DNA from: Bacteroidota bacterium
GTDB lineage: Bacteria > Bacteroidota > Bacteroidia > 2-12-FULL-35-15
DNA length: 64,000 nucleotides
Reading direction: 5' to 3'
NCBI GenBank assembly: GCA_023251805.1
Contig: JAHEYB010000002.1
Span: 35,038-99,037 of the forward strand
Below, in pieces: positions 4,301 to 63,220 of this stretch; within the stretch, counting starts at the first letter, position 1, and each line of letters starts with the position of its first letter. The notes beneath the pieces are model-generated. The model searched no databases. It saw only the letters and a list, made by a program, of their open reading frames with translations, and was not told the DNA's origin. A program made the position numbers and the translations under genes.

Positions 4301-4434
4301 GGGTCTAAATTTAAGTGTATAACAAACTTGCGTCAATTTTTTTAAAAAAGCAAATAAATCTCGAAAATGCTGTAACATTCCTTTTAGTCCAAAATTATTA
4401 CAACTGGATTTCAAAAAAACAATACATTTGCTTT

Positions 4435-4938
4435 ATGCTAAAAGTAAAAGTAAATAATCAAAAAGAGCACACGATTGAACTGGAGAACATTTCTGCTGGA
4501 ATCATTGATGGGAAAGCTTTTTCTTGGGATGTAATAGAGGTTAAAAATGGTAGTTTTCATGTTATAAAAGACAACCGTTCTTACAACGTAGAGGTGATAA
4601 AAGTGGATGTATCAGAAAAAAGCTTTTTGGTAAGTGTGAATGGCAACAAATACCAATTAAATGTTAAAGATAAATTTGACGAATTGTTGAAGAGCCTTGG
4701 GTTTGATGATTTAAATGCGAAAAAAGTAAACGAAATAAAAGCTCCAATGCCCGGATTGGTATTGGATGTGAGAGTTTCTGAAGGCGATACGGTTAAAAAA
4801 GGAGACGCAATTTTAGTTTTGGAAGCTATGAAAATGGAAAACATTATCAAATCTCCAACCGATGGAACGATTAAGAAAATCAATGTAAAGAAAGGTGTTG
4901 CAGTTGAAAAAAATCAGGTGCTTATTAACTTTGGATAG
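4435..4938 (+). CDS. biotin/lipoyl attachment domain protein (biotin carboxyl carrier-like)
   Basis: C-terminal EAMKMEN with flanking hydrophobic beta-strand pattern (PMPGLVLDVRVSEGDTVKKGDAILVLEAMKMENIIKSPTDGTIKKINVKKG). Start moved from track 4315 to the ATG at 4435 (MLKVKVNN); the 5' extension has poor coding character. Confidence 0.7.
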   Translation: MLKVKVNNQKEHTIELENISAGIIDGKAFSWDVIEVKNGSFHVIKDNRSYNVEVIKVDVSEKSFLVSVNGNKYQLNVKDKFDELLKSLGFDDLNAKKVNEIKAPMPGLVLDVRVSEGDTVKKGDAILVLEAMKMENIIKSPTDGTIKKINVKKGVAVEKNQVLINFG

Positions 4939-4952
4939 ATGTCTTCCCTTAC

Positions 4953-4998
4953 GCTTCGACTACGCTCAGCGTGACGTCATACTGAGCGTAGTCGAAGC
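4953..4998. repeat. REP-like palindromic hairpin element (family A)
   Basis: Perfect 16-17-bp inverted arms GCTTCGACTACGCTCAG / CTGAGCGTAGTCGAAGC around a 12-nt loop. The same arm sequence recurs at 9846-9970, and related cores recur at about 16463, 17948, 20798 and 25453. Confidence 0.6.
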
Positions 4999-5023
4999 AT
5001 AAGAGACTAAAAGCTACAAAAAA

Positions 5024-5788
5024 ATGGAAAACAATCGTAGAGATTTTATAAAAAAATCGGCATTAGCAATTGGTGCTATCGCTATTACTTCCTCTATTGG
5101 AAAAGCATTAACTAATTCAGAAAGTTTCGAAAAAGAAAACCCCTTATTGGACGGAGGAAAATATACACTCCCCGCTTTACCTTATGCATACGATGCCTTA
5201 GAGCCACACATTGACAAATTAACAATGGAAATTCATCACAGCAAACATCATCAAGCCTATGTCGACAATATGAACAAAGCCTTACAAGCGGCTGATGGAA
5301 ATGTATTGGGAAGTCCACAAACATTTGAAAACATTTTTGATAAGGTTGCAAAGCTTCAACCTGCGCTCCGCAATAATGCTGGCGGGCATTACAACCATTC
5401 AATGTTTTGGCAACTGATGCGCCCTGCAAAATCAGAAGGGAACTCCCCTGAAGGAAAATTAGCAGAAGCAATTAAAACCGAATTTGGTTCCTTTGAAGAA
5501 TTTAAAAAACAATTTGCAGAAGCTGGAATGAAACGATTTGGTTCTGGTTGGGTTTGGTTGGTAAAAACACCAGAGAAAAAATTTGTCATTACCTCAACCG
5601 CTAATCAAGATAACCCATTGATGAAGCTAGATTCCGTTGAAGTAAAAGGGGTGCCTGTATTAGCTTTAGATGTTTGGGAACATGCCTACTATTTAAAAAA
5701 TCAAAACAAACGTGCTGATTATATTGCTTCTTGGTGGAACGTGGTGAATTGGGAAATGGCGGAAAATTTATTCTCTCCTGTTAAATAG
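5024..5788 (+). CDS. sod: Fe/Mn-family superoxide dismutase with twin-arginine (Tat) signal peptide
   Basis: N-terminal RRDFIKKSALAIGAIAI Tat motif. SOD motifs LPYAYDALEPHIDKLTMEIHHSKHH, DVWEHAYYL and WNVVNW are present. Confidence 0.9.
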   Translation: MENNRRDFIKKSALAIGAIAITSSIGKALTNSESFEKENPLLDGGKYTLPALPYAYDALEPHIDKLTMEIHHSKHHQAYVDNMNKALQAADGNVLGSPQTFENIFDKVAKLQPALRNNAGGHYNHSMFWQLMRPAKSEGNSPEGKLAEAIKTEFGSFEEFKKQFAEAGMKRFGSGWVWLVKTPEKKFVITSTANQDNPLMKLDSVEVKGVPVLALDVWEHAYYLKNQNKRADYIASWWNVVNWEMAENLFSPVK

Positions 5789-9814: not shown

Positions 9815-9845
9815 GGAAACGTGTTTGATAGCTCCGTAGCGTAGA

Positions 9846-9970
9846 CACTTCGACTACGCTCAGTGTGACGGCAAAAGGAATCGGTCAGACTGACAGCAAA
9901 AGGGAGCCGCTCAGAATGGTGGCAAAAAGGTAATCGCTCAATAAGACGTCACACTGAGCGTAGTCGAAGT
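9846..9970. repeat. composite REP-like element: 25-bp perfect inverted terminal arms enclosing about 3 tandem 26-bp units
   Basis: Arms CACTTCGACTACGCTCAGTGTGACG and CGTCACACTGAGCGTAGTCGAAGTG. The interior holds three degenerate units of the form CG(C/G)TCAG(N3-4)GAC(N)GCAAAAGG(N5). Confidence 0.6.
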
Positions 9971-10003
9971 GTACATTAATACAAGGACAGATATGGTAAA
10001 ATA

Positions 10004-16175: not shown

Positions 16176-16462
16176 ATTTTTTTGATTTTGGTTTATTTTA
16201 TTATTTAGTTTTTTAATACATACAAATTTTTGAAAAGATGGTTCTTTTTTTTGAAAAAATTTTATTCAATAGGGCATCAAACATACTAAATCTATTTCGA
16301 ATGTAAAAATTTTTAATGAAACTTAATCAATCTAAAACACAGGGCTAATAACCACGAAATAAGGCAAAAGATTGCTTAGAGATTTAAGCTTTTATTAAAT
16401 GGCGGGATTTAAGCGGTAAGGGGTTGGAATATGATAGTAAATGGGGAAATTGCCCCTTACTC

Positions 16463-16503
16463 TTCGATATGTCTGCTTCAACGCAGAATGCTCAGAGTGA
16501 CGG
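16463..16503. repeat. REP-like element (family A variant with inserted CTGCTTCAACGCAG hairpin)
   Basis: CTTCGATATGTCTGCTTCAACGCAGAATGCTCAGAGTGACGG. Near-identical copies at about 17948-17990 and about 25453-25495. Confidence 0.55.
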
Positions 16504-16505
16504 AT

Positions 16506-17144
16506 TTATAATCCTCCTCGGTTTTTGGTAGCCTTTGTTTTGACAAAAAGGGAAGCTATTGTTATGATTATCAGTCCAATAATAATATATCCAATGTTTT
16601 TTGTTACCCAAGGATTTGTTCCAAAAAAATAGCCAATACCAGCCAAAGAGCCTACCCAGATAACTGCTCCAATCATGTTGTACAACATGTATTTTTTATA
16701 ATCCATCTGGATCATCCCACCTATCACTGGTGCAAAATTTCGTATCAATGGTAAGAAACGCCCTACTATCAATATTTTTCCTCCATGTTGGTCATAAAGA
16801 TTTATCGTGCGATCTATCCACCATTTTTTAAATATGAAGATCTTAGTGTCTGGTTTCATGCATCTTGGTCCCATCGTTTTAAAGCCAAACCAATAACCAA
16901 TGTAATAACCAATGATGGCGGCAATGGAAAGCAAAATGATCAAGACAAGCAGGTTTACTCCCAATGTTTCGGGCTTGGAATAACAAAGAATTCCTGCCAT
17001 AAAGATGAGGGAGTTTCCAGGAAGAAAAAAACCTGCAAGGAAAGAACACTCAGCAAAAACAATAAAGATAAGGAAAGCCAGACTTCCCCAATTAATAATG
17101 TATTGGGCATCACTAAAATTCCTGATAAATTGTATTACTTCCAT
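16506..17144 (-). CDS. dedA: DedA-family (VTT/SNARE-associated domain) membrane protein
   Basis: Motifs FLPGNSLIF and GRFLPLIRNFAPVIGG. Start set to ATG 17144 (MEVIQFIRNF...) by homology with the downstream paralogue; the track's 5' extension to 17255 would read through intergenic GC hairpin repeats. Confidence 0.8.
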   Translation of the reverse strand: MEVIQFIRNFSDAQYIINWGSLAFLIFIVFAECSFLAGFFLPGNSLIFMAGILCYSKPETLGVNLLVLIILLSIAAIIGYYIGYWFGFKTMGPRCMKPDTKIFIFKKWWIDRTINLYDQHGGKILIVGRFLPLIRNFAPVIGGMIQMDYKKYMLYNMIGAVIWVGSLAGIGYFFGTNPWVTKNIGYIIIGLIIITIASLFVKTKATKNRGGL

Positions 17145-17169: not shown

Positions 17170-17285
17170 TTACGAATATTGTTATTCATATTCGACCTGC
17201 TACCAATATTCGACCCTCTGGGGTCGGGAAGAATCTGATGTGGGTTTCTATTCATATTCGCCCCCCTGGGGTCGGGAATGGAAAA
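17170..17285. repeat. tandem GC-rich hairpin repeats in the dedA-dedA intergenic leader
   Basis: ATATTCGACCCTCTGGGGTCGGGAAG and ATATTCGCCCCCCTGGGGTCGGGAATGG, plus a partial unit. They are related to the CCCGACCGGCAGGCGGGTGAAT hairpin at 32886 and 63001. Confidence 0.45.
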
Positions 17286-17926: not shown

Positions 17927-17947
17927 AATACGGATAACAAATCTATA

Positions 17948-17990
17948 CCCTTCGATGTGTCTGCTTCAACGCAGAATGCTCAGGGTGACG
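17948..17990. repeat. REP-like element (family A variant)
   Basis: CCCTTCGATGTGTCTGCTTCAACGCAGAATGCTCAGGGTGACG. Confidence 0.55.
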
Positions 17991-18014
17991 CATGAATATG
18001 TTCATCGTAAATAA

Positions 18015-20797: not shown

Positions 20798-20822
20798 GCC
20801 CTTCGACTTCGCTCAGGGTGAC
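20798..20822. repeat. REP-like half element (CCCTTCGACTTCGCTCAGGGTGACG)
   Basis: Family-A core lying in the nuoM-nuoN spacer. Confidence 0.5.
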
Positions 20823-20839
20823 GTAACGTATTTTTAAAT

Positions 20840-25429: not shown

Positions 25430-25452
25430 AATATTGTTTTTCGTTTTTGGTT

Positions 25453-25495
25453 CCCTTCGATATGTCTGCTTCAACGCAGAATGCTCAGGGTGACA
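25453..25495. repeat. REP-like element (family A variant) in the nuoI-nuoJ spacer
   Basis: CCCTTCGATATGTCTGCTTCAACGCAGAATGCTCAGGGTGACA. Confidence 0.55.
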
Positions 25496-25510
25496 ATAGT
25501 TTTTAAAAAA

Positions 25511-28244: not shown

Positions 28245-28595
28245 TTAATCTTTTAAGTTAATAATAATTGATGCTAATACTTTTGAGATTTCCATTAATT
28301 CTGTCTTATCATTTTTCATTAAATCATTATTCAATTCATATCCGTCTTCAATTACTTCCATCCAATAATCCGATTCATTTGCAGAGCGTAAGGCAATTTC
28401 ATAAAATCTAATTAGCTCCTTTTTTGAACTACTTACTTTTGCCTCTCTTACATTCGCTCCAACGGATGTTCCACTTCTTAATAATTGATCTCTTAATGGA
28501 TAATCTACGCTACTTGCTTTTAATTCTCGTGTTAGTTTAACTATTCTAACTGCAAATTTTTTAGTTCTAACTCTTATATCATTTTCGTACTTCAC
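28245..28595 (-). CDS. four-helix-bundle protein (23S rRNA intervening-sequence protein family; Avd-like fold) inserted between nuoG and nuoF
   Basis: 116 aa, all-helical. Motif pattern KKFAVRIVKLTREL...DQLLRSGTSVGANVREA...ELIRFYEIALRSANESDYWMEV is typical of the family. Flanked by GTCAAAAG octamer arrays. Confidence 0.7.
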   Translation of the reverse strand: MKYENDIRVRTKKFAVRIVKLTRELKASSVDYPLRDQLLRSGTSVGANVREAKVSSSKKELIRFYEIALRSANESDYWMEVIEDGYELNNDLMKNDKTELMEISKVLASIIINLKD

Positions 28596-31930: not shown

Positions 31931-32281
31931 TTATTTTTTTAAGTTAATTATTATTGTTTCAAGCACTTTTGAAATTTCTAATAATTCGCTTTTATCATTT
32001 TTCATTAAATCACTCTTTAAATCATATCCTTCTTCTAATACTTCCATCCAATAATCTGTTTCATTTGCAGAACGTAAAGCAATTTCATAGTACCTTATCA
32101 ATTCTTTTTTTGAACTACTCGCTTACCCTTCTCTAACATTTGCACCAACTGATGTTCCGCTACGCAATATTTGATCTCTTAAAGAATATTCAACACCCTT
32201 AGCTTTTAATTCAATTGTTAACTTTATTATTCTTACTGCAAACTTCTTTGTTCTAAGCCTAATATCCTTTTCGTATTCCAT
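31931..32281 (-). pseudogene. second four-helix-bundle (IVS-family) gene copy, interrupted by an in-frame TAA at about codon 52
   Basis: Minus-strand translation MEYEKDIRLRTKKFAVRIIKLTIELKAKGVEYSLRDQILRSGTSVGANVREG*ASSSKKELIRYYEIALRSANETDYWMEVLEEGYDLKSDLMKNDKSELLEISKVLETIIINLKK, about 75% identical to the 28245..28595 copy. Stop at about 32123-32125. Flanked by GTCAAAAG arrays. Confidence 0.55.
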
Positions 32282-32359
32282 AAATCCTTGCAACAATCAA
32301 AAGCTTTTTTGACTTTTTACCTTTTCTTTTGACTTTCTCCCTTTTGACTTTTGACTTTC

Positions 32360-32866
32360 CTACCTTCCAAACATTTTATCATCTTTATCTTCACGTGTTC
32401 CATCTTCCAATGCGTATTCTTTTCTCATTGGGAAATATCCTAAATCATCCATATTTAAAATGCGTTTTAGGTTTGGATGGCCTCTGAAAATAATTCCGAA
32501 GAAATCATACTCTTGTCTTTCCATCCAATTAGCAGCAGAAAAAACAGGAGAGATGGAGGGAACATTCACATCGCTACTGCTAAAAAATATTTTTATTCTG
32601 ATCCGTAAATTTTTTTGAAGGTTGTGTAACTGATACATCACAGCAAATTCTTGTCCTGCATTATCAGGATAATGAATAGTTGCCATGGTTGTTAAATATT
32701 GAAAAGCAAGTTCTTCATCTTTGTAAAGAAAATCGGCTACATCACAAATGATATCACGCTTCACAACAAACTCAGGATAATCAACATTCATCTTAGATGA
32801 AATAAATCCATCACCGAATTGTGTTTTTAGCTTTTGTTCAACTATCGTTAATAAATTATTCTCCAT
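32360..32866 (-). CDS. nuoC: NADH-quinone oxidoreductase subunit C (30 kDa)
   Basis: 168 aa with conserved NuoC sequence, positioned between nuoD and nuoB. Confidence 0.8.
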   Translation of the reverse strand: MENNLLTIVEQKLKTQFGDGFISSKMNVDYPEFVVKRDIICDVADFLYKDEELAFQYLTTMATIHYPDNAGQEFAVMYQLHNLQKNLRIRIKIFFSSSDVNVPSISPVFSAANWMERQEYDFFGIIFRGHPNLKRILNMDDLGYFPMRKEYALEDGTREDKDDKMFGR

Positions 32867-32928
32867 TTTTTTCTTTTAACTTTCCTGCCCGACCGGCAGG
32901 CGGGTGAATTTCCGCTCTTTTAACTTTC
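32867..32928. repeat. miniature hairpin element with flanking 10-15-bp direct repeats (nuoB-nuoC spacer copy)
   Basis: Minus-strand reading: GGAAAGTTAAAAG-AGCGGAAATTCACCCGCCTGCCGGTCGGGCAGG-AAAGTTAAAAG. A near-identical copy lies inside rnr at 62981-63034. Confidence 0.55.
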
Positions 32929-33489
32929 CTATTCCATTCCGTAGCTATTCAACAATGCTTTGTACTCAGGAGAATCTCTTCTTCTGATAGATTCTGATTC
33001 AACCAATTTTTGAATTTGTAAAATTCCATCCAATACTTGTTCGGGGCGAGGAGGGCAACCAGGAATGTAAACATCTACCGGTATCACTCTATCAATTCCT
33101 TGAAGCACACTATATGTATCAAAAATTCCACCGCTAGAAGCGCAAGCACCCATTGACAGCACCCATTTTGGCTCTGCCATTTGTTCGTATACCTGACGTA
33201 ATACCGGAGCCATTTTTTTAGAGATGGTTCCCATTACCATTAATAAATCTGCTTGACGCGGAGAGAAACTTAAACGCTCAGCCCCAAAACGACCTAAATC
33301 GTACGTAGATGCCATGGTTGCCATGAATTCGATTCCACAACAAGAGGTTGCAAAAGGCAATGGCCATAATGAATTTGCACGCGCCATTCCAACTACTTTA
33401 TCGATACGTGTTGCAAAAAAACCCGGACCTTCCATTCCCGGAGGAGCATCTGCATCTAAGTTTACTTTTGATTTTTCTTTTGTTGACAT
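32929..33489 (-). CDS. nuoB: NADH-quinone oxidoreductase subunit B (20 kDa; N2 cluster)
   Basis: Motifs CCGIEFMA, GACASSGG and YIPGCPPRPE. Confidence 0.9.
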   Translation of the reverse strand: MSTKEKSKVNLDADAPPGMEGPGFFATRIDKVVGMARANSLWPLPFATSCCGIEFMATMASTYDLGRFGAERLSFSPRQADLLMVMGTISKKMAPVLRQVYEQMAEPKWVLSMGACASSGGIFDTYSVLQGIDRVIPVDVYIPGCPPRPEQVLDGILQIQKLVESESIRRRDSPEYKALLNSYGME

Positions 33490-33539: not shown

Positions 33540-33986
33540 TTAATTTAAAGTAATCACCATTCCGGGGACTTGTTTGGCGGCTTTTCCGCTTTGAACAATT
33601 TCAACAGAACCAATTTCCAACTTATCACCTAACTTTTTTTCCTTGTGTAATTTTTCTATCGCCTCCATCGCTCCTTTTGTAAACCTGTTTCCTTGCTGCG
33701 TATATTCAACAAACACAAAATCTTTTTTTTCCTTAACTTTCAATGTGATAATAAAATAACTAACAGAGGCGCCTTTATCTAATGCCGTTAATTCTTTTTT
33801 GCAAGCCATAAATTCATTATAGGTCATTGTACAGTCGCCAGTTTTTCCACAAAAAGAAAATGCAGATTTTGTATCTTGAGCAAAAGATAATTGTGATGTA
33901 ATAAAAACAATGAACGCGATTCTTAATAAATACTTCACCCCTTTTGACTTTTCGCTTTGTACTCTTTTGACTTTTCTTATTCCCAC
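33540..33986 (-). CDS. hypothetical secreted Cys-containing protein encoded between nuoA and nuoB
   Basis: Signal-peptide-like KYLLRIAFIVFITSQLSFAQ, then FSFCGKTGDCTMTYNEFMACKKEL. The likely true start is GTG at about 33938. The track start at 33986 is also GTG and overlaps the nuoA stop. Confidence 0.45.
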   Translation of the reverse strand: MGIRKVKRVQSEKSKGVKYLLRIAFIVFITSQLSFAQDTKSAFSFCGKTGDCTMTYNEFMACKKELTALDKGASVSYFIITLKVKEKKDFVFVEYTQQGNRFTKGAMEAIEKLHKEKKLGDKLEIGSVEIVQSGKAAKQVPGMVITLN

Positions 33987-34571: not shown

Positions 34572-37500
34572 TTAGTACACAATAATCTTTTTCACTACTT
34601 CATGTTTCTCATTTGTTAATGAAATTGTGTAGACTCCTTTTCCATAATCAACAACACTTAATTGTTTAGTGTATTGACCTGAGAAATCGTTTACTTCATC
34701 TTTAAAGATTAATTGACCCAAAGCATTTGTCAATTCCAAAGTATATGTTCCTTTAACAGAAACATTGAAGGAAACATTAAAGTTTCCATCGTTTGGATTT
34801 GGATAGATACTTAACAAATAAGGATTTGATGTTTGGTCCATTCCAGTTGTTGTAATCACTTCTGGGGCAGATGCTGCGGAAGAACAACCACCAATTGTTA
34901 CAACAACGGTATACGTTCCGTTTGCAGTAAACACGTAAGTTTGATTTGTTTCACCTGCAATTGGTGTTCCGTTCAAATACCATTGGTTTCCTGTTGCGGA
35001 GCTGGATGTTAAGGTAGAGCCCGACAAAGAAATTGTTGGTGTAGGAGGTGTAGGAGTTACAACCATTGTAATTCCAGTGCTGGTTGCGGTAAGCGGACTA
35101 GCACAAGTTGCATTGGATGTTAAAATACACGTTACTACATCGCCATTTGCAAGCGTTGTTGTTGTATATGTTGTTCCACCTGTTCCAACATTTGCTCCGT
35201 TCACTTGCCATTGGTAAGTTGGAGTGGTTCCACCATTTGTTGGGGTTGCTGTAAACGTTACAGATGTTCCCGAGCAAATTGCTCCGGATGGAGCAGCTAC
35301 AATACTTACTGCGGGTACAAGTGTAGGGTTCACAGTAATTGTGATTGCATTAGATGTTGCTGTTGGTGTGCTCGGACAAGTTGCATTGGATGTCATAATA
35401 CAAGTTACAATATCGCCATTCACAAGTGTCGTTGACGTATAAGTTGTTCCGCCTGTTCCCACGTTGGTTCCATTCAATTGCCATTGATACGTTGGAGTTG
35501 TTCCACCATTTGTTGGTGTTGCAGTAAATGTAACTGAAGTTCCGACACATATTGCTCCGGATGGACTCGCTACAATGCTTACCGAAGGCACCACAATAGG
35601 ATTTACAACCATTGTGATTGCATTAGATGTGGCAGTAGTTGGACTAGCGCATGGAGAACTAGAGGTTAATATACAGGTTACGATTTGCCCGTTTGTTAAC
35701 GTGCTACTAGTATAAGTTGTTCCGCCTGTTCCAACATTCGCCCCGTTCACTTGCCATTGATATGTAGGTGTTGTTCCACCTCCACCAGCAGTTGCAGTGA
35801 AAGTAACAGATGTTCCTGCGCAAATTGCCCCACTTGGGCTAGCAACAATTGCATTGGTTGGTACAACACTGCCGCTTACAACAACGACAGTTGTTCCTAC
35901 CGGACTAGTACAACCGGCAACTGTAACTGTTACACTATATGTTCCAGCCATTGCTGCTGTTGCTCCTGGACGACTTGGATCTTCTAAAGCAGAAGCAAAT
36001 GCACTTGGGCCTGTCCAGCTATAAGTTGCGCCTGCTACGGTGTTTGATGTTAACAAAATTGTTGAGCCGGTACATACCGGAGAATTACTTCCAGCTGTTG
36101 GAGCCGCAGGAATAGGGTTCACAACAATTGTAACAGTTCCCGCTAAACTTGTACAGCCGCCATTGGTAACCGTTAATGAATAGGTTCCACCCATAACCGT
36201 AGTTACACTGGTTAAGGCCGGTGGATTGCGCACTCCAGCAGCATAACTATTCGGGCCTGTCCACGAGTAAGTATATCCACCACCTAAATTTGGTGTTGTT
36301 AAAGTAATAGTTCCGCCTGCGCAAATTGCTGCAGGAGTTGTGCTTCCATTAATACTTGGAACCGGTGTTGCGGGCAATGCATTTACAACAACTGTTGTTG
36401 TTGCTACAGCGCTTGTGCAGCCACCAACTGTTACTGTTAAACTATATGTTCCAGCCATTGCTAATGTTGCACTTGCAATTGTTGGATCTTCTAATGCAGA
36501 AGTAAATCCGCTAGGTCCCGTCCAAGAGTATGTTGCTCCGGCAATTGTATTTGAAGTTAAACTAATCGTTTGTCCAACACAATCAGGAGTACTACTTCCT
36601 ACAGTTGGAGTTGCAGGGGCACTGTTTACGACAACTGTGGTGGTGCCCACTAAACTAGTACAACCGCCCACAGTTATTGTTACACTGTAAGTTCCGGCCA
36701 TTGCAGTAGTTGCGCTCGCAATTGTTGGATTTTGCAAGGCTGATGAATACGCTAGAGGGCCTGTCCATGCATACGTTGCGCCTGCTACTGTTGGCGTTGC
36801 CAAAGAGATGGTTGCACCCACACAATAAGGACCAGTGTTTGTTGCTGTTGGTGTGGCTGGTAAAGCATTTACCACTACTGATGTTGTGCCTGCCGCACTT
36901 GTACAACCGCCAACTGTGATGGTTACACTATAAGTTCCGGCCATTGCTAAAGTTGAACTTGCAATAGTTGGATTTTGTACGGCTGATGAGTATGCTAAAG
37001 GACCTGTCCATGCATACGTTGCGCCTGCTACTGTTGGCGTTGCCAAAGAGATAGTTGCTCCTACACAATAAGGACCTGTGTTTGTTGCTGTTGGTGTGGC
37101 AGGTGGCGAACTCACTACCACTGTAGTTGTACCTACTAAACTTGTACAACCGCCAACTGTGATGGTTACACTATAAGTTCCGGCCATTGCTAAAGTTGAA
37201 CTTGCTATGGTTGGATTTTGTAAGGCTGATGAATATGCTAAAGGACCTGTCCATGCATACGTTGCGCCTGCTACTGTTGGCGTTGCCAAACTGATAGTTG
37301 CGCCTACGCAATAAGGACCTGTGTTTGTTGCTGTTGGAGTGGCTGGTAAGGCATTTACCACCACTGTGGTTGTACCTACTAAACTTGTGCAACCGCCTAC
37401 AGTTATTGTAACACTATAGGTTCCGGCCATTGCAACTGTTGCTCCGGGACGAGTTGGATTTTGCAAAGCTGATGCAAAAGCGCTTGGACCAGTCCATGCA

Positions 37501-40500
37501 TATGTTGCGCCTGCTACTGTTGGTGTTGCCAAAGTGATAGTTGCGCCTACACAATAAGGGCCTGTGTTTGTTGCTGTTGGTGTTGCTGGTAATGCATTTA
37601 CCACAACCGTGGTTGTTCCTGCTGCACTTGTACAACCACCTACTGTTATGGTTACACTATAAGTTCCGGCCATTGCGGTTGTTGCACTTGCAATGGTTGG
37701 ATTTTGTAAGGCTGATGAATATGCGCTTGGACCCGTCCATGCATACGTTGCGCCTGCTACTGTTGGAGTGGATAATGCAATTGTTCCACCTACACAATAA
37801 GGGCCTGTATTTGTTGCTGTTGGTGTTGCAGGCGGGGAATTTACTACTACTGTTGTTGTGCCTACTAAACTTGTACAACCGCCTACTGTTATTGTAACAC
37901 TATATGTTCCGGCCATTGCCACGGTTGCTCCCGGGCGAGTTGGATTTTGTAAGGCTGAAGCAAAGGCACTTGGGCCTGTCCATGAATACGTTGCCCCCGC
38001 TACTGTTGGAGTTGCCAAACTGATAGTTGCGCCTACGCAATAAGGGCCTGTGTTTGTTGCTGTTGGAGTGGCTGGTAAGGCATTTACCACCACTGTGGTT
38101 GTACCTACTAAACTTGTGCAACCGCCTACAGTTATTGTAACACTATAGGTTCCTGCCATTGCAACTGTTGCTCCGGGACGAGTTGGATTTTGCAAAGCTG
38201 ATGCAAAAGCGCTTGGGCCTGTCCATGCATACGTTGCACCCGCTACTGTTGGCGTTGCCAAAGTGATAGTTGCGCCTACACAATAAGGACCTGTGTTTGT
38301 TGCTGTTGGTGTAGCTGGCAATGCATTTACCACTACTGTCGTTGTTCCAGGTAAACTTGTACAACCGCCTACTGTTATGGTTACACTATACGTTCCGGCC
38401 ATTGCGGTTGTTGCACTTGCAATGGTTGGATTTTGTAAGGCTGATGAATATGCGCTTGGACCCGTCCATGCATACGTTGCGCCTGCTACTGTTGGAGTAG
38501 ATAATGCAATTGTTCCACCTACACAATAAGGACCTGTATTTGTTGCTGTTGGTGTGGCAGGCAAGGCATTTACCGTCATTGTAATTGCGTTGGAAGTAGC
38601 CGGACTGCCGGTTACTCCAGGTAAATTGGAAGTCATAACACATGTTACAATATTTCCATTTGCCAACGTGGTGGTTGTGTATATTGGTGATGTTGCACCG
38701 CCTACAGGCACTCCATTAATATACCATTGGTATGTTGGTGCTGAACCACCATTGGTTGGTGTTGCTGTAAACGTAGCAGATGCTCCAGCGCACATTGGAT
38801 TTGTTCCAGCTGTTTGTGCAATTACTACACTTGCAACCGGAGCTCCTGTTCCAGTGATATTAATATTATCTAAATAAAGCATTTGTCCCCAGCCCGATTT
38901 GTTTTGGAATTTCACCATCACATTTGCTTGTCCAGCATAAGGAGTCATACTCACATTTTCCGTTCTCCATTGCGCTGCAGTGGGAACAAAAACGGTTGAA
39001 TTATTATCAGGTGCGGTTGCTAATACTGTGCTTCCTTTTGCATAAACTCTAGCCCAAGTAGCGCCACAATTTGTAGAAACAAAAACAATTAATGAATCAA
39101 AATAAGTTGCATCATATCTACAATAAGCAACATCAAAAGTCATATTAGCAGTTGACACTCCCGTGAAATTATATTTCGGAGTTATCATTTCATCAAGGTA
39201 CCCTGCTGTAGAAGTGGCAGGTGTTAAGTTATCCATTGATGCAGATTGAGTACTTGCTCCAAACCCCCCACAGGCAGTTGATTGCGTCCAAGCAAAATCC
39301 GCATCTGGATTTATTAGTTGCCAGCCCGGTGGAATAAATGTTGCCTGAAAGCCTTCTACTAAAGGTAAAGCAATAGGTGAAGAAACAGTAATGTATCCCA
39401 CTTTTGTTTCTCCGTCACTTCCGTTTATATTGGTTGCTGTTAACACAACTTGATACGTTCCGGCTGTATTATAACAAATGTTTGTAGGATTTTGTAACGT
39501 TGATGTTGCAGGTGTTCCACCTGTAAATGTCCAGCTCCAAGATGTTGGAGAGCCTGAAGAAATATCTGTAAAATTAATACAATCACCTACACAAATATTA
39601 GTTCTGTTAGCTGTGAAGTCGGCCACAGGAGGCGAAGTGCCAGGTGAAGCTAAATCTGATTGCCAAATACTACGACCGAATGTTGCTGCTCTTAATTTAG
39701 AAGCAGTATATTGAATTTCTAATTCTCTAACTGAAACATTTGGTAAACCTGTGTTGTAAGCAGCCCAAGAACCCGAAGTATTATCACGATAATAAACACC
39801 TACATCTGTTCCAACATAAAGCGGATCATTAACAGAGCTTCCTTGGTAGACAATACAATTGGCAGGAAGATTTGGTAAGCCTGTAGAATAATTACTCCAC
39901 GTTACACCAGCATCAGCAGAATACCAAACTTTGTTTGCAGCTGAGTATCCTGAAAAAGTAACCCAAACTCTATTTGCGTTTAGTGGGTCAATAGCAATAT
40001 AAGAAATAGATGCGGATGCTGTAGGAAGTCCAGCTGTTCTATCAACAAAAGCTGCGCCTGTAGTACACGCATAAAACCTGTTTATTTTAGCTGCATAAAT
40101 GTAGTTGATGTTAGAAGCTGCATTAGCAATTGCAATTAGACTTCCGGTTCCACCGGAAATGGTTCCCACTTGAGCCCACGTTGCGCCACTATTTGTACTT
40201 TTAAACACTTGAGATTTTCCTACAAATAAAGTTGCTGCATTGGTTGGAGCCTCGCAATAAGGAGTTACCCAATCACCGTCTTCGTTCACTGTTCCTGCTG
40301 CACCTCCACTGCTAACTATTGTAGTTGTATAGTTTCCGGCTGTGGTAGTTTTTCTGATATCGCCATAGTATAATTCACCGTATTGTATGTTGGCATTGGA
40401 CCAATCTATCAAACACTCCATACCATCACCACCTAAAGGTCTTGTCCAAGCTGCTGTTCCCGTCCATCTTGCGGTTCCATTGTCTTGCCAACCAGTATTT

Positions 40501-42083
40501 AATAAATTTGCATTTGTGGTAGACAGTCCAATTCGGTATGCTTGGGAAATTTGTAGTCCGTTGCTCAGATCCGTCCATGCAGTTCCACTTGTGGTGGTTC
40601 TAAAAAATCCTCCATCGCAACCGGCAAAAATGGTTGTTCCGCTACCCGGTAAAAATTCAATTGCGTGAATATCGGCATGGACGTATGGAGCACCTGAACC
40701 TGTCCATTCAGCATTTAAAGTCCAACTGGTTCCACCATTTGTAGAGCGCCAAATATTAACTCCACCAACCATTACCTGGTCGGCAACTAAAGGAGAAACC
40801 GCAAGCGCTAAGTCGTACCATCCTTGTCCACCAGCAGTTGCGCCAGTTGCAGAATAACCTAAAATATTTGGAGTAGTAGAACGAGTTGTAAAAGTGGCAC
40901 CATTATCTGTTGAACGATATAACCCTTGGTATCCGTAGGCTGTATTTGCTGCTAATACATAAACATAAGCTGAGTTTGCAGCAGTAACAGCAACCGATAA
41001 ACGAGAAACAGATGCAGCAGCAGGCAAGCCCGTAGATGTGGTTGCAAAAGTGGTTCCGCCATTTGTTGATTTGTAAAACAATGTGGTAGAAGTAGCATAA
41101 ACTGTTGTGGTATCTGTTGGTCGAAATTCAATGTCTTTGATGTTAGCAACAGCCGTTGCGATTTGTGTCCAAGCCGCTCCAGCATTACGTGAGCGATACA
41201 CGCCATTGCTTGTTGCTGCAAAAATAGTGTTTGGATTTTGAGGGTTAATTAATAATCGGCTAATGGTTCTTCCTTGTGTTACCAGCCACGATAAGCCTGT
41301 TGGCAACCAGGTGGTTCCCCCATCAGTAGTTTTTAATACTCCGATTGAATACGTATCTTGGGCTTCGCCATCACCGGTAGCCAAATACTGAATCAATGGA
41401 TTTGTAGGGTGTATAGCAATATCGGTTGTTCCAATAACGGCCAAGGCATCTGTTCCTGTTGTCCAAGTAACGCCACTATTCGTAGATTTCCACAATCCAC
41501 CGCCTGGGGAGCCACAATAATAGGTAGTAGAAACAAGTGGGTCGAAGCGGATAAAATTTACACGGCCAGCACCGCCACCACCCGAAGGGATAGAGGTTGT
41601 GGGACCAATTAAAGTCCAGTTTGCTGCCATCACGGTGGGTGTTCCCGGACCAGCAGCTCTGGTTCCACTAGCAGCACCTGAATAAAAATTATCAAGATAT
41701 TCGTTCCAGGCGTTAATCATTACAGAACGGTCTCCTGAGGGATATAAACGAGGAGTCATATAGCTTTCCCAACGCTTATAAATCTCCCACCCGCCTGCTA
41801 ATTCTTCTTCTTCTTTTTCGCCAGGCAATAAAGTTGAACCACCTTTAACCGGAAGCAATGGCGTTTTTAGTTTCGCCATTTTTTTCTCCATTTCCTTCCG
41901 CTCACGGGCTTCTTCTTTCCTGTGTTTCTTTTCTGTGTTCTTATAGTAGTCGTTAAACGACTTTTGAACATCATAAAAGTTTACTGTGGGATCTTGCATT
42001 TTTTCAACCCATGTTTGGGAATGGGCTGTTTTTACTGATACTGTAAGAGCAAGAGTTAAAGAAAAAAGTATTAATTTTTTCAT
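34572..42083 (-). CDS. giant (2503 aa) T9SS-secreted adhesin-like protein: N-terminal BNR/Asp-box beta-propeller region, PKD-like domain, 11 tandem 81-aa Cys-containing Ig-like repeats, 4-5 further about 75-aa Ig-like repeats, type-A T9SS CTD
   Basis: Signal peptide MKKLILFSLTLALTVSVKTAHSQ. Many xTNGGTTW/STNSGATW/TTDGGTTW motifs are present. Repeats take the form PATPTATNTGPYCVGATISLATPTVAGATYAWTGPSAFASALQNPT..AMAGTYSVTITVGGCTS. The C-terminus is ...GKGVYTISLTNEKHEVVKKIIVY. Confidence 0.85.
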   Translation of the reverse strand: MKKLILFSLTLALTVSVKTAHSQTWVEKMQDPTVNFYDVQKSFNDYYKNTEKKHRKEEARERKEMEKKMAKLKTPLLPVKGGSTLLPGEKEEEELAGGWEIYKRWESYMTPRLYPSGDRSVMINAWNEYLDNFYSGAASGTRAAGPGTPTVMAANWTLIGPTTSIPSGGGGAGRVNFIRFDPLVSTTYYCGSPGGGLWKSTNSGVTWTTGTDALAVIGTTDIAIHPTNPLIQYLATGDGEAQDTYSIGVLKTTDGGTTWLPTGLSWLVTQGRTISRLLINPQNPNTIFAATSNGVYRSRNAGAAWTQIATAVANIKDIEFRPTDTTTVYATSTTLFYKSTNGGTTFATTSTGLPAAASVSRLSVAVTAANSAYVYVLAANTAYGYQGLYRSTDNGATFTTRSTTPNILGYSATGATAGGQGWYDLALAVSPLVADQVMVGGVNIWRSTNGGTSWTLNAEWTGSGAPYVHADIHAIEFLPGSGTTIFAGCDGGFFRTTTSGTAWTDLSNGLQISQAYRIGLSTTNANLLNTGWQDNGTARWTGTAAWTRPLGGDGMECLIDWSNANIQYGELYYGDIRKTTTAGNYTTTIVSSGGAAGTVNEDGDWVTPYCEAPTNAATLFVGKSQVFKSTNSGATWAQVGTISGGTGSLIAIANAASNINYIYAAKINRFYACTTGAAFVDRTAGLPTASASISYIAIDPLNANRVWVTFSGYSAANKVWYSADAGVTWSNYSTGLPNLPANCIVYQGSSVNDPLYVGTDVGVYYRDNTSGSWAAYNTGLPNVSVRELEIQYTASKLRAATFGRSIWQSDLASPGTSPPVADFTANRTNICVGDCINFTDISSGSPTSWSWTFTGGTPATSTLQNPTNICYNTAGTYQVVLTATNINGSDGETKVGYITVSSPIALPLVEGFQATFIPPGWQLINPDADFAWTQSTACGGFGASTQSASMDNLTPATSTAGYLDEMITPKYNFTGVSTANMTFDVAYCRYDATYFDSLIVFVSTNCGATWARVYAKGSTVLATAPDNNSTVFVPTAAQWRTENVSMTPYAGQANVMVKFQNKSGWGQMLYLDNINITGTGAPVASVVIAQTAGTNPMCAGASATFTATPTNGGSAPTYQWYINGVPVGGATSPIYTTTTLANGNIVTCVMTSNLPGVTGSPATSNAITMTVNALPATPTATNTGPYCVGGTIALSTPTVAGATYAWTGPSAYSSALQNPTIASATTAMAGTYSVTITVGGCTSLPGTTTVVVNALPATPTATNTGPYCVGATITLATPTVAGATYAWTGPSAFASALQNPTRPGATVAMAGTYSVTITVGGCTSLVGTTTVVVNALPATPTATNTGPYCVGATISLATPTVAGATYSWTGPSAFASALQNPTRPGATVAMAGTYSVTITVGGCTSLVGTTTVVVNSPPATPTATNTGPYCVGGTIALSTPTVAGATYAWTGPSAYSSALQNPTIASATTAMAGTYSVTITVGGCTSAAGTTTVVVNALPATPTATNTGPYCVGATITLATPTVAGATYAWTGPSAFASALQNPTRPGATVAMAGTYSVTITVGGCTSLVGTTTVVVNALPATPTATNTGPYCVGATISLATPTVAGATYAWTGPLAYSSALQNPTIASSTLAMAGTYSVTITVGGCTSLVGTTTVVVSSPPATPTATNTGPYCVGATISLATPTVAGATYAWTGPLAYSSAVQNPTIASSTLAMAGTYSVTITVGGCTSAAGTTSVVVNALPATPTATNTGPYCVGATISLATPTVAGATYAWTGPLAYSSALQNPTIASATTAMAGTYSVTITVGGCTSLVGTTTVVVNSAPATPTVGSSTPDCVGQTISLTSNTIAGATYSWTGPSGFTSALEDPTIASATLAMAGTYSLTVTVGGCTSAVATTTVVVNALPATPVPSINGSTTPAAICAGGTITLTTPNLGGGYTYSWTGPNSYAAGVRNPPALTSVTTVMGGTYSLTVTNGGCTSLAGTVTIVVNPIPAAPTAGSNSPVCTGSTILLTSNTVAGATYSWTGPSAFASALEDPSRPGATAAMAGTYSVTVTVAGCTSPVGTTVVVVSGSVVPTNAIVASPSGAICAGTSVTFTATAGGGGTTPTYQWQVNGANVGTGGTTYTSSTLTNGQIVTCILTSSSPCASPTTATSNAITMVVNPIVVPSVSIVASPSGAICVGTSVTFTATPTNGGTTPTYQWQLNGTNVGTGGTTYTSTTLVNGDIVTCIMTSNATCPSTPTATSNAITITVNPTLVPAVSIVAAPSGAICSGTSVTFTATPTNGGTTPTYQWQVNGANVGTGGTTYTTTTLANGDVVTCILTSNATCASPLTATSTGITMVVTPTPPTPTISLSGSTLTSSSATGNQWYLNGTPIAGETNQTYVFTANGTYTVVVTIGGCSSAASAPEVITTTGMDQTSNPYLLSIYPNPNDGNFNVSFNVSVKGTYTLELTNALGQLIFKDEVNDFSGQYTKQLSVVDYGKGVYTISLTNEKHEVVKKIIVY
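35900..38570. repeat. intragenic tandem array of 11 x 243-bp repeats (8 near-identical; 3-unit, 729-bp higher-order periodicity)
   Basis: The track shows out-of-frame ORFs recurring every 243 bp (36655, 36928, 37171, 37414, 37657, 37900, 38143, 38386). Sequence starting at 37322 recurs at 38051 (offset 729) with stretches of more than 100 bp identical. Confidence 0.8.
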
Positions 42084-60799: not shown

Positions 60800-63220
60800 A
60801 TGGCTAAGAAGTTTCAACGCAAAACAGAGGGAAAGAAGAAGAGCTTTTTTTTCGAAGAAATACTAAAAGTATTGTCTTCAAACCGCAATAAAGCACTCAA
60901 TTACAAGCAGATAGCAGCCGAATTAAAAATCACTGATTTTGGCCAAAGACAACTCATTAACGTTATTTTAGAAGAATTGAAGAAGAATGGTTCTGTAATT
61001 GAACCCGAACGAGGTAAATTCAAAATAAAACGCGCAGAACTTTTTGTTTCTGGCCGTGTAGACATGACTTCCACTGGGGCTGCATACATCATTTCTGAAG
61101 ATACCGAAGAAGACGTTATTGTTGCACCTAAAAAAACGCTTAATGCCATGCATGGTGATACTGTTAAAGTGCGTGTGTTCCCAAAAGGAAAAGGCAAACA
61201 AGAAGGTGAAATCATAGAAGTTATAGAGCGTGCAAAGACTGAATTTGTTGGCACATTGCAGGTTTCACCCAGATTTGCCTTTCTCGTACCTACCAACATT
61301 AAAATTCATGTCGACATTTACATCCCATTGGAAAAGTTGAATGGCGCTAAAGATGGGCAAAAAGCCATTGCAAAAGTTATCGAGTGGCCTAAAAATGGTG
61401 TTAATCCTATTGGTGAAATTAAAAGTGTGTTGGGTGATGTTGGTGAAAACAATACGGAAATGCATGCAATTTTGGCGGAATACGGACTTCCATACGAATT
61501 TCCAAAAGATGTAGAACGCGCTGCCGACCTCATTCCTATTAAAATTACACAAGAAGAAATCGCAAAAAGACGTGACTTCAGAAAAACCACCACATTCACC
61601 ATTGATCCGGTGGATGCAAAAGATTTCGATGATGCACTTTCCATACAAAAATTAAAGAATGGAAACTGGGAAATAGGCGTTCACATTGCCGATGTAAGCC
61701 ATTACGTGAAGCCCGATTCGATGATTGACAAAGAAGCAATTTCGCGCGCTACTTCTGTATACCTTGTAGACAGAGTTGTTCCGATGCTTCCCGAAGTTTT
61801 ATCAAACAATGTTTGTTCTCTTCGACCGAATGAAGAAAAATTGTGTTTCTCTTCTGTGTTTGAAATGACGGACGATGCAGAGGTGGTAGCAGAATGGTTT
61901 GGCAGAACAATTATTAATTCCGACAGACGCTTTACATACGAAGAAGCCCAACAGGTAATAGAAACAGAGGAAGGCGATTTTAAAGAAGAAGTTTTAACCT
62001 TAGATAGGTTAGCAAAAATATTACGCAACAATCGTTTTAAGAAAGGAAGTATTGCGTTTGAAAAAATGGAAGTGAAATTTCATTTGGATGAAGTTGGAAA
62101 TCCTACGGGAGTATTTTTTAAAGTAGCGAAAGATTCCAATCAATTGATTGAAGATTTTATGCTTCTAGCCAATAGAAAAGTCGCAGAGTTTGTTGGGAAA
62201 AAAAAGAGTGAAAGAGGAGAAAATCATAAGTCAAAAGAAAACAATAAAGAACCTCAACGGCCTTTTGTATATCGTATTCACGACAAACCGAATCCAGATA
62301 AGTTGCAAAATTTTTCGGAATTTGTGGCGAAGTTTGGTTATAAATTAAACGTGAAAAACATCAACACGGTTGCCGACTCAATGAACAACTTGTTGAAAGA
62401 AGTGAATGAGAAAAAAGAATCGGGAATGATTGAAATGCTTGCTATTCGCACCATGGCGAAGGCGGTATACACCACAAAAAATATTGGTCACTACGGATTA
62501 GGGTTTGATTATTATACACATTTTACTTCTCCTATTCGTAGATATCCTGATGTGATGGTGCACAGATTGTTGCAACATTATTTGGATGGAGGAAAAAATC
62601 CGGACATTGATAAATTGGAAGAACAGTGTAAACACTCTTCTGATATGGAGAAGCTGGCAGCAGATGCGGAGCGCTCTTCCATCAAATACAAACAAGTACA
62701 ATACTTAACGGATAAAATCGGAGAGGAGTTTGATGGTGTGATTTCGGGTGTTACGGAGTGGGGAATATTTGTAGAGATTATTGAAAATCATTGCGAAGGC
62801 ATGGTGCGTTTGCGTGAACTGCGTGACGATAATTATTATTTTGATGAAGACAATTATTGTTTGCGTGGCCGTAAATTCGGAAAAGTATTAACGCTTGGAG
62901 ATACTGTGCGTATTGAGATTAAGCGTGCCGACTTGGTAAAAAAACAATTGGATTTTGCATTGGTAGAAGTGTTTGAAGAGAAGTCAAAAGGAGAAACTCA
63001 CCCGCCTGCCGGTCGGGCAGGAAAGTCAAAAGGCGAGCAACGTTCGTTTTCAAAACGCGAACAACACAAAGCAAAAAGTAAAAATTACAAAGAGGAAATG
63101 AAGTCGGCAACGCAACGAAATGCTAATTCAAAACAAGAATCATCGCCTCCCCCTAAAAAAGAAGAGCCGAGGAAACCAACAGGGAATGCCTTTTTGGATG
63201 AATGGGGGTTTGAGGTGTAA
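60800..63220 (+). CDS. rnr: ribonuclease R (RNB-family 3'-5' exoribonuclease) with Lys-rich C-terminal tail
   Basis: N-terminal HTH/cold-shock-like region, an RNB catalytic domain (FTIDPVDAKDFDDALS; GHYGLGFDYYTHFTSPIRRYPDVMVHR), an S1 domain (GVISGVTEWGIFVEI) and a basic low-complexity tail. Confidence 0.9.
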   Translation: MAKKFQRKTEGKKKSFFFEEILKVLSSNRNKALNYKQIAAELKITDFGQRQLINVILEELKKNGSVIEPERGKFKIKRAELFVSGRVDMTSTGAAYIISEDTEEDVIVAPKKTLNAMHGDTVKVRVFPKGKGKQEGEIIEVIERAKTEFVGTLQVSPRFAFLVPTNIKIHVDIYIPLEKLNGAKDGQKAIAKVIEWPKNGVNPIGEIKSVLGDVGENNTEMHAILAEYGLPYEFPKDVERAADLIPIKITQEEIAKRRDFRKTTTFTIDPVDAKDFDDALSIQKLKNGNWEIGVHIADVSHYVKPDSMIDKEAISRATSVYLVDRVVPMLPEVLSNNVCSLRPNEEKLCFSSVFEMTDDAEVVAEWFGRTIINSDRRFTYEEAQQVIETEEGDFKEEVLTLDRLAKILRNNRFKKGSIAFEKMEVKFHLDEVGNPTGVFFKVAKDSNQLIEDFMLLANRKVAEFVGKKKSERGENHKSKENNKEPQRPFVYRIHDKPNPDKLQNFSEFVAKFGYKLNVKNINTVADSMNNLLKEVNEKKESGMIEMLAIRTMAKAVYTTKNIGHYGLGFDYYTHFTSPIRRYPDVMVHRLLQHYLDGGKNPDIDKLEEQCKHSSDMEKLAADAERSSIKYKQVQYLTDKIGEEFDGVISGVTEWGIFVEIIENHCEGMVRLRELRDDNYYFDEDNYCLRGRKFGKVLTLGDTVRIEIKRADLVKKQLDFALVEVFEEKSKGETHPPAGRAGKSKGEQRSFSKREQHKAKSKNYKEEMKSATQRNANSKQESSPPPKKEEPRKPTGNAFLDEWGFEV
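62981..63034. repeat. miniature hairpin element with flanking direct repeats, embedded in-frame in the rnr 3' region
   Basis: GAAGTCAAAAGG-AGAAACTCACCCGCCTGCCGGTCGGGCAGG-AAAGTCAAAAGG. The core is identical to the nuoB-nuoC spacer copy (32867-32928, opposite orientation). It encodes ...SKGETHPPAGRAGKSKGEQ... in the RNase R tail. Confidence 0.55.

Follow-up and report, generated by a model that had tools for sequence, protein, structure and literature searches.

A 21-nt GC-rich hairpin in the nuoB-nuoC spacer and the RNase R gene of a Bacteroidota bacterium looks like an extremely small mobile or copied DNA module

The two copies and their host sites

The window analysed here (i.e., the whole stretch of 64,000 nt from a Bacteroidota bacterium, 37% GC) carries a nuo operon on its minus strand and the gene for RNase R (rnr) on its plus strand. 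The same short GC-rich hairpin, which we call the core, occurs in both: once in the spacer between nuoB and nuoC (copy A), and once within the coding sequence of rnr (copy B).

32360..32866, minus strand: nuoC (PF00329, Pfam)
32867..32928, minus strand: nuoB-nuoC spacer of 62 nt, made up of A-rich AAGTTAAAAG-type filler and the core
32873..32882, minus strand: AAGTTAAAAG motif on the nuoC side of copy A, context outside the inserted unit
32884..32904, minus strand: copy A, the 21-nt core CCCGCCTGCCGGTCGGGCAGG, in the nuoB-nuoC spacer
32917..32926, minus strand: AAGTTAAAAG motif on the nuoB side of copy A, context
32929..33489, minus strand: nuoB (PF01058, Pfam)
60800..63220, plus strand: rnr (RNase R, 806 aa), host of copy B
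62981..62990, plus strand: AAGTCAAAAG (encodes KSKG) upstream of copy B, pre-existing in core-less orthologs
63001..63021, plus strand: copy B of the 21-nt core, within the RNase R C-terminal tail and in frame, a 21-nt gap in alignment A1
63023..63032, plus strand: AAGTCAAAAG (encodes KSKG) downstream of copy B, pre-existing in core-less orthologs

As the first-pass annotation of this DNA had reported, the hairpin unit is present twice: The 23-mer CACCCGCCTGCCGGTCGGGCAGG has exactly two matches in the window (32884-32906 on the minus strand and 62999-63021 on the plus strand), when none is expected (100 shuffles, with up to 3 mismatches allowed), and AAGTYAAAAG brackets both. The variable upstream base that had been written as M is actually T or C (AAYTCA). 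The whole units of the two copies form an inverted pair of 47 nt with 89% identity, and they are among only 16 GC-rich islands in the window. The core itself consists of a 4-nt 5' tail (CCCG), a 6-bp stem (CCTGCC/GGCAGG) and a 5-nt loop, and its hairpin has a computed free energy of -11.1 kcal/mol as RNA and -6.7 as DNA. The insertion contexts, in rnr GAAAGTCA^AAAGTCA and between nuoB and nuoC GAAATTCA^AAAGTTA, are both A-rich and of a period-7 AAAGTCA type, and share the form GAAA(G/T)TCA^AAAGT(C/T)A within period-7 AAGTCAA arrays, which occupy several spacers of the nuo operon. Copy A is sense to the nuo transcript, with the nuoC ATG 20 nt downstream. Since neither window copy is followed by a U-tract (AAAGT stands there instead), the hairpin is not an intrinsic terminator; over the low-GC copies among the matches listed, T makes up 38% at the first downstream position.

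Copy B sits past the S1 domain, in the hypervariable lysine-rich tail of RNase R, and the conserved C-terminal ...DEWGFEV is kept despite its presence. The closest orthologs, at about 90% identity, are without the segment, and the core was found in none of the 119 other rnr orthologs listed. When the window is aligned with orthologous rnr loci (A1, with L122 and L124), there is a single clean gap of exactly 21 nt, at 63001-63021.

rnr site, P0006 (empty): AAGTCAAAAGGGGAAAGTCA^AAAGTCAAAAGG
rnr site, window (filled): AAGTCAAAAGGAGAAACTCA, then the 21 nt, then AAAGTCAAAAGG

In protein, P0006 has the tail ...KSKGESQKSKGEQR... and the window ...KSKGETHPPAGRAGKSKGEQR...; with the junction codons included, the orthologs' ...KSKGESQKSKG... 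becomes ...KSKGETHPPAGRAGKSKG..., a net gain of 7 residues. The earlier placement of this copy, in frame in the lysine-rich hypervariable tail, was correct, but the insert amounts to 7 residues (21 nt) and not to the roughly 14 residues (about 42 nt) then given. Both AAGTCAAAAG units are present in the empty rnr sites of P0006 and P0004, and in the latter the two had already diverged from one another. Since the empty site has the units already, the flanking repeats do not represent a target-site duplication, which had been the interpretation; such repeats are also absent from the gcvT insertion described below, and the flanks of copies in other genomes are unrelated.

The nuoB-nuoC junction of many relatives (L133-L142) has no spacer at all, with stop and start lying 2-5 nt apart, and this is the ancestral state. 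Two closer relatives (L128 and L130) have an A-rich spacer of the AAGTCAAAAG type without the core (...AAAAATTCA^AAAAATG), and in others the junction carries unrelated GC hairpins. Copy A is the same in an independent metagenome contig (L121), which is identical to the window at nuoB-nuoC. Comparison with empty sites, both the core-less rnr orthologs at about 90% identity and the spacer-less nuoB-nuoC junction, therefore upholds the view that the hairpin is a discrete insertion and not conserved coding sequence: Copies A and B are insertions of one discrete 21-nt module, CCCGCCTGCCGGTCGGGCAGG.

Several other features of the nuo operon are of a different kind. Two genes of PF05635 (23S rRNA intervening-sequence protein, an Avd-like four-helix bundle) are inserted on the minus strand, one between nuoF and nuoG (28245-28595) and one between nuoC and nuoD (31931-32296). 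Arrays of the flank motif do bracket these four-helix-bundle genes, as had been noted, but the repeat is of period 7 (AAGTCAA) and is not an octamer; the arrays are inverted (28181-28245/28610-28637 and 31889-31926/32300-32366), and in the predicted RNA fold they pair as a long-range stem of about 18 bp that encloses the PF05635 gene, in the manner of rRNA intervening sequences. The gene between nuoC and nuoD is probably a pseudogene, since an in-frame stop splits it into two ORFs of 57 and 56 aa; the same split is called in the independent contigs L120 and L121. Between nuoA and nuoB there is an extra ORF of 148 aa (33540-33986, minus strand), which lacks a Pfam match and whose start resembles a signal peptide; AAGTCAAAAG motifs precede it, a twofold TACGAAT repeat follows it, and a C-terminus similar to that of its product occurs directly upstream of nuoC in one relative (L126). 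In contig L120 (positions 1-100), NuoC is 100% identical to that of the window, and upstream of it a different, truncated ORF replaces nuoB and the hairpin spacer; the junction, at TTAAAAGAAAAAAATG, represents either a strain rearrangement or an assembly chimera.

The window also contains further repeat families, to which palindromes in the nuoB-nuoC junctions of relatives are related: a REP-like, CGTC-tagged family of the CGTCAC(A/G)CTGAGCGTAGTCGAAG type (4945-5006, 9845-9873, 9935-9973 and 20798-20826) and a 53-nt palindromic family, ...CTTCGATATGTCTGCTTCAACGCAGAATGCTCAGRGTGAC... (16458-16510, 17946-17998 and 25451-25503). Two GC hairpins, ATTCGACCCTCTGGGGTCGGGAAG and ATTCGCCCCCCTGGGGTCGGGAAT, are spaced about 50 nt from each other between two minus-strand ORFs (17196-17280). 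The hairpins at 17170-17285 had been considered relatives of the core, with which they in fact share only CCCGACC, and a scan allowing 5 mismatches missed them; because their stem (CGACCC/GGGTCG) differs from that of the core, we assign them to a family of their own. On the minus strand, 34572-42083 is the part of the window that is richest in GC; it encodes a secreted protein of 2503 aa that has a Por secretion tail and about 10 tandem repeats of 243 nt (81 aa).

The core in other genes and genomes

A second site with both an empty and a filled state was found in the gcvT gene of a Chitinophagaceae genome (L095), whose product has 368 aa as against 361 aa in most relatives and reads EEN-NPPAGRAG-VYML where these have EEN-K-VYML. 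In the DNA alignment (A3), exactly CCCGCCTGCCGGTCGGGCAGG is inserted between GAAAACAA and AGTCTA with no flanking repeat, and deleting the 21 nt restores the relatives' EENKVYM. Two orthologous copies at this site have decayed, one (L207, TCTGCCTGCCGGCAAGGCAGG) by 5 changes that left 12 of 12 stem positions intact (P = 0.006) and the other (L208) by 10 changes with loss of the stem, so that an inserted copy drifts like ordinary DNA. Given such decay, the perfect window copies, which are missing from relatives at about 90% identity, are recent. At both sites (A1 for rnr, A3 for gcvT), the core is inserted precisely, with the same 21-nt ends and without duplication of the target.

Other host genes accommodate the core in comparable ways. 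Removing the 21 nt from the FtsK gene of a Saccharibacteria genome (L047) turns YNSNLPDRQAGGQGK into YNSNGQGK, which at the protein level fits the YN.NGGK loop of homologs. In the same loop, FtsK homologs of other Patescibacteria (P0253, P0268 and P0275) bear other Ala/Gly/Ser-rich segments (...STGSGQA..., ...HLSSEALAKEG...), which we suspect to derive from other GC-rich palindromes. At L115, two cores 7 nt apart and in differing frames lie within one long ORF that reads like DnaG.

In a scan of one genome per species (a 596-Gb collection), the exact 21-mer was present at at least 119 loci in at least 8 phyla, so the multi-copy family that the first-pass annotation had envisaged does exist. 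Among the matches listed, 79 copies lie in DNA of less than 48% GC, where fewer than 0.1 matches would be expected from composition in the entire collection; chance could account for the few matches in GC-rich genomes, those of Streptomyces among them. Approximate numbers for the carrier groups, tallied from record titles among the matches listed, are as follows.

Bacteroidota: about 43 loci
Patescibacteria: about 26 loci
Ignavibacteriota/Chlorobiota: about 11 loci
Planctomycetota: about 11 loci
Acidobacteriota: about 7 loci
Marinimicrobia, Omnitrophota and Nitrospirota: a few each

The cultured carriers in the Bacteroidota include Xanthomarina, Sediminicola, Flavobacterium, Aequorivita, Pelagihabitans and Christiangramia, with Xanthomarina sp. 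F1114, Aequorivita capsosiphonis DSM 23843 and Flavobacterium sufflavum BBQ-12 among them, and no Firmicutes, Cyanobacteria or Archaea appear among the matches listed. There is one match in 2.9 million viral contigs, and plasmid matches are either partial or in GC-rich hosts, with none in low-GC plasmids; these searches thus identified no vector for spread between phyla. Rfam holds no matching family (only sub-threshold chance matches), and a search of the open literature by sequence, by encoded peptide and by keyword yielded no description of it. A segment of 23S rRNA may partially resemble the core, presumably by coincidence.

There are up to 3 matches per metagenome-assembled genome (MAG) among the matches listed, and 2 copies in the 64-kb window. 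About 14 additional copies with 1-3 mismatches were found in 950 kb of loci that had been ascertained by an exact match, and no further copies in about 390 kb of relatives' loci when L121 and L125 are set aside. A loop variant (...GGACGGG..., in ...CCGGACGGG...) occurs in four groups (Planctomycetia, Saccharibacteria, Flavobacteriaceae and Ignavibacteriaceae), and there are more distant variants (e.g., CCTGCCTACCGGACAGGCAGG). In two pairs of sister species with orthologous filled sites (L058/L090 and L084/L089), the flanks have diverged and the core is intact, a comparison in which ascertainment by exact match introduces a bias. The core also lies, within single MAGs, inside longer, lineage-specific repeats of at least 60-75 nt (L036/L070 and L037/L040/L053; e.g., ...GATGCTGAAATAAA-core-TTCAGCATGA), so that composite elements carrying the core multiply as well. 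Head-to-tail arrays of core variants occur at L072, L056, L115 and L054. The arrays at L072 (positions 2850-5050, in the cultured Xanthomarina sp. F1114) consist of 21-27-nt units in a highly repetitive, hairpin-rich region, with conserved ends (CCCGCC...TCGGGCAGG) and variable middles (TGCCGG, TGTTTG, GGGTAG and TGAAGAACATGG).

Because the core has no stop codon in any of its six frames and its 21 nt correspond to 7 codons, it can be tolerated in spacers, hairpin loops, disordered tails and the surface loops of proteins. Among the matches listed, 31 of the 79 low-GC copies (39%) lie inside ORFs of at least 200 aa, whose products, as read from the flanking peptides, include IleS, GcvT, FtsK, a sensor kinase, an ABC transporter, a lysine-rich protein tail and a DnaG-like protein. 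Orientation within these ORFs is even (16 sense and 15 antisense, n = 31). Four of the six frames are in use (RLPVGQ, PPAGRAG, PARPAGG and LPDRQAG), and the two that encode cysteine account for 2 of the 31 copies, a depletion (binomial P = 4.6e-4) that points to translation of the inserts and to their being filtered by selection. Selection acts on the reading frame of the inserts; and since the small non-coding fraction accounts for about 61% of copies, it is evident that most insertions into genes do not persist.

Little information resides in the immediate flanks of the low-GC copies: The highest base frequency is 0.58 (A at +2), no conserved target motif or tetranucleotide adjoins the core, and the flanks are unrelated between lineages. 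When the core was deleted in silico and the remaining site checked for folding, 19% of copies had the junction looped out by a perfect hairpin whose stem was 6 bp or longer, as opposed to 3% of control positions, and in 8 of these 15 copies the core directly abuts the 3' arm. For 31% of copies (15% of controls) there are flanking direct repeats of 6 nt or more, and at five loci (L079, L051, L034, L092 and L114) two tandem units, of 7-14 nt, enclose the core exactly. Further widespread palindromes of REP-like type have cores nested in their loops (e.g., GTCATCCTGAGCGAAG...GAAGGAT and ATGCTGAA...TTCAGCAT). The enrichment in hairpin loops and between tandem repeats suggests that the element favours DNA able to fold or slip. 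A general tie to period-7 arrays was rejected (flank lag-7 autocorrelation of 0.29, with 0.26 in controls), and the arrays around the window copies are local context.

Possible means of copying and their rivals

The core has the look of a DNA module, extremely small and undescribed, that is mobile or copied. The explanation that we tentatively place first is a non-autonomous, REP-like hairpin element that a structure-specific enzyme, acting in trans on single-stranded DNA, mobilises. REPs and the ends of IS200/IS605 elements have a tetranucleotide 5' of a short hairpin's foot, and Y1 HUH enzymes cut and join such ends on single-stranded DNA without target duplication (PMC6006769); moreover, REPs within ORFs are documented (PMC3733652). 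The anatomy of the core fits this definition of REPs and IS200/IS605 ends, and this fit, along with the documented REPs inside ORFs, is why we rank mobilisation in trans first. Under such a process, a structure-specific nuclease, for which an HUH/Y1 nuclease (RAYT or IS200-type) is the leading candidate, would copy or move the 21-nt hairpin in trans on single-stranded DNA, and the preference for hairpin loops and tandem junctions would represent the targeting of transiently single-stranded or folded DNA.

Against mobilisation in trans, there is no linked enzyme. The 78 genes flanking intergenic copies include no transposase family and no enriched Pfam family; a tblastn search with an IS200 TnpA query returned nothing significant in the 950 kb of loci or in the window; and a scan for the HUH...Y motif recovered two Y1-like ORFs in Patescibacteria (L026 and L118), which lie 3-4 kb from a core and are not core-flanked. 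An association of the core with PF05635 was also considered and rejected, being absent from the 78 neighbour genes outside the window (Pfam). Unlike IS608-type elements, the core has no target motif next to its insertions. Its tail is CCCG and not the GT[AG]G or CGTC tag of described REPs, and it is a single 21-nt hairpin without separate left and right ends. Identity across phyla, for which neither viral contigs nor plasmids supplied a vector, is not what a vertically inherited RAYT system would predict.

A rather unlikely alternative is that the copies are by-products of repair or replication, in which, with no dedicated transposing enzyme, polymerase template switching or break repair copies the 21-mer from an earlier copy into structure-prone sites (hairpin loops, slipped tandem repeats), and short-homology gene conversion then spreads it among similar contexts (such as the AAAGTCA arrays) within a genome. 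The two window copies lie in the same type of array, and their flanks are similar over about 8 and 11 nt (47 nt, 89%); and the longer lineage-specific repeats that contain the core, the head-to-tail arrays of core variants, the enrichment in hairpin loops and between tandem repeats, and the lack of both target duplication and a linked gene are all consistent with such a process. However, the gcvT and histidine-kinase sites have no homology to the flanks of other copies and yet have the exact 21-nt ends: If template switching were responsible, we would not expect identical boundaries every time, and the identity of the core across phyla would be left unexplained.

More doubtful still is the idea that the core is a selected functional motif (for instance, an mRNA stabiliser or processing site in operon spacers like that of nuoB-nuoC, or a DNA site for a conserved protein), retained and perhaps gained repeatedly for what it does, whose mobility is secondary. 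Its computed stem is strong for its size, copy A lies 20 nt before the start of nuoC, other GC hairpins occupy this spacer in relatives, and the decayed gcvT copy at L207 preserved its entire stem (P = 0.006); the intact cores between diverged flanks in the two sister-species pairs point the same way, subject to the bias of exact-match ascertainment. But the other decayed gcvT copy (L208) lost its stem, 39% of copies are in coding sequence, there is no matching Rfam family, and the hairpin, having no U-tract, is not an intrinsic terminator. The equal orientations inside ORFs (16 vs. 15) also make a general role at the RNA level unlikely. The two window copies, one in the nuo mRNA and the other in the tail of RNase R, most probably ride along as passengers of little functional importance; copy A is at most a stem-loop of -11 kcal/mol situated 20 nt before the start of nuoC.

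That the core is a MITE-like transposon whose AAGTYAAAAG flanks are target-site duplications, as the first-pass annotation proposed, is very improbable. The flanks are identical within each window copy and different between the copies (TT/TT vs. TC/TC), and at the five loci named above the core lies exactly between units of 7-14 nt. Nevertheless, the empty rnr sites of P0006 and P0004 already hold both units (diverged in P0004), gcvT has no repeat of any kind, and most loci are without a flanking repeat, such that alignments A1 and A3 both contradict this model; nor does a 21-nt element without long terminal inverted repeats have the size or signature of a MITE. Lastly, the reading of the core as conserved coding or spacer sequence, as a chance match or as an assembly artefact, in favour of which stands only the small copy number within the window, is refuted, since neither the 119 other rnr orthologs listed nor the nuoB-nuoC junctions of relatives have the core, fewer than 0.1 chance matches are expected in low-GC DNA, the core is present with different assemblers, in long-read assemblies and in cultured isolates, and the decayed orthologous gcvT copies evolve as real DNA.

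Known palindromic elements and significance

Having favoured mobilisation in trans, we compared the core with described families of short palindromic repeats. Like the core, REPs are multi-copy and mostly intergenic, and sometimes lie in frame in ORFs, including those of replication and repair genes (PMC3733652, PMC6006769). REPs of the REPIN-RAYT systems are likewise short, imperfect palindromes (21-65 nt, the core being 21 nt) with a tetranucleotide 5' of the hairpin foot, they do not duplicate their target, and they nest in or next to other palindromes, as do cores. The 4-nt 5' architecture is the same, but the REP tag is GT[AG]G or CGTC whereas that of the core is CCCG; and core copies are single units, whereas REPINs are inverted doublets. 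In REP systems the repeats flank a RAYT/Y1 transposase gene (REPtron) of the same genome and number tens to hundreds per genome; no RAYT was found near any copy of the core (78 neighbours, 950 kb of loci). REPs are species-specific and vertically inherited with their RAYT, whereas the core is identical across at least 8 phyla.

Rickettsia palindromic elements (RPEs) are about 100-150 bp long, reside in AT-rich genomes and are known only from Rickettsia and its relatives. They are selfish palindromic DNA found in frame in protein-coding genes (PMC3733652), and RPEs and the core both insert in frame in functional ORFs and add a peptide at tolerated positions. The RPE is several times larger and Rickettsia-confined, and the core is 21 nt and cross-phylum. 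The core works like a REP or an RPE, yet it departs from REPs in two of their defining properties, the tag and species specificity.

The GC clusters of yeast mitochondria, which are 30-50 bp long, fall into several classes and have an unresolved mechanism of mobility, resemble the core in being short GC-rich palindromes of an AT-rich genome that occupy spacers, are occasionally in frame, and cluster and nest; they are organellar and eukaryotic, however, and have no sequence relationship to it. Bacterial MITEs (Correia/NEMIS, RUP, ERIC and Nezha) are, like the core, non-autonomous, multi-copy, hairpin-folding and located near or in transcription units. MITEs also make a target-site duplication. 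They measure 70-300 bp and have terminal inverted repeats of 15-30 bp (PMC3733652); neither this size, nor such repeats, nor the duplication applies to the core.

There is a fair chance, although a less than even one, that the core is the smallest discrete mobile DNA module seen so far: a hairpin of 21 nt with defined ends and no target duplication, shared base for base by free-living bacteria across phyla (the FCB group, the PVC group, Patescibacteria and Acidobacteriota). If this is true, either a trans-acting machinery that recognises the core must be widely conserved or the core must have been transferred between phyla repeatedly, and it means that essential proteins have been tagged with 7-residue peptides (PPAGRAG, RLPVGQ, PARPAGG or LPDRQAG). 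An enzyme that pastes a defined 21-nt hairpin without leaving a footprint would be of practical interest. In annotation the insertions cause noise, and in MAGs they give rise to spurious short repeats; they are also clean presence/absence characters that can serve as phylogenetic and strain markers, and natural experiments that reveal at which positions an essential enzyme tolerates 7 additional residues. The finding poses the question of how the exact 21-mer, with the same ends, came to be in Flavobacteriaceae, Saccharibacteria and Planctomycetes, and it would extend the REP/RPE idea of palindromic selfish DNA within genes to a far smaller unit and to uncultivated phyla, in which such repeats have hardly been studied.
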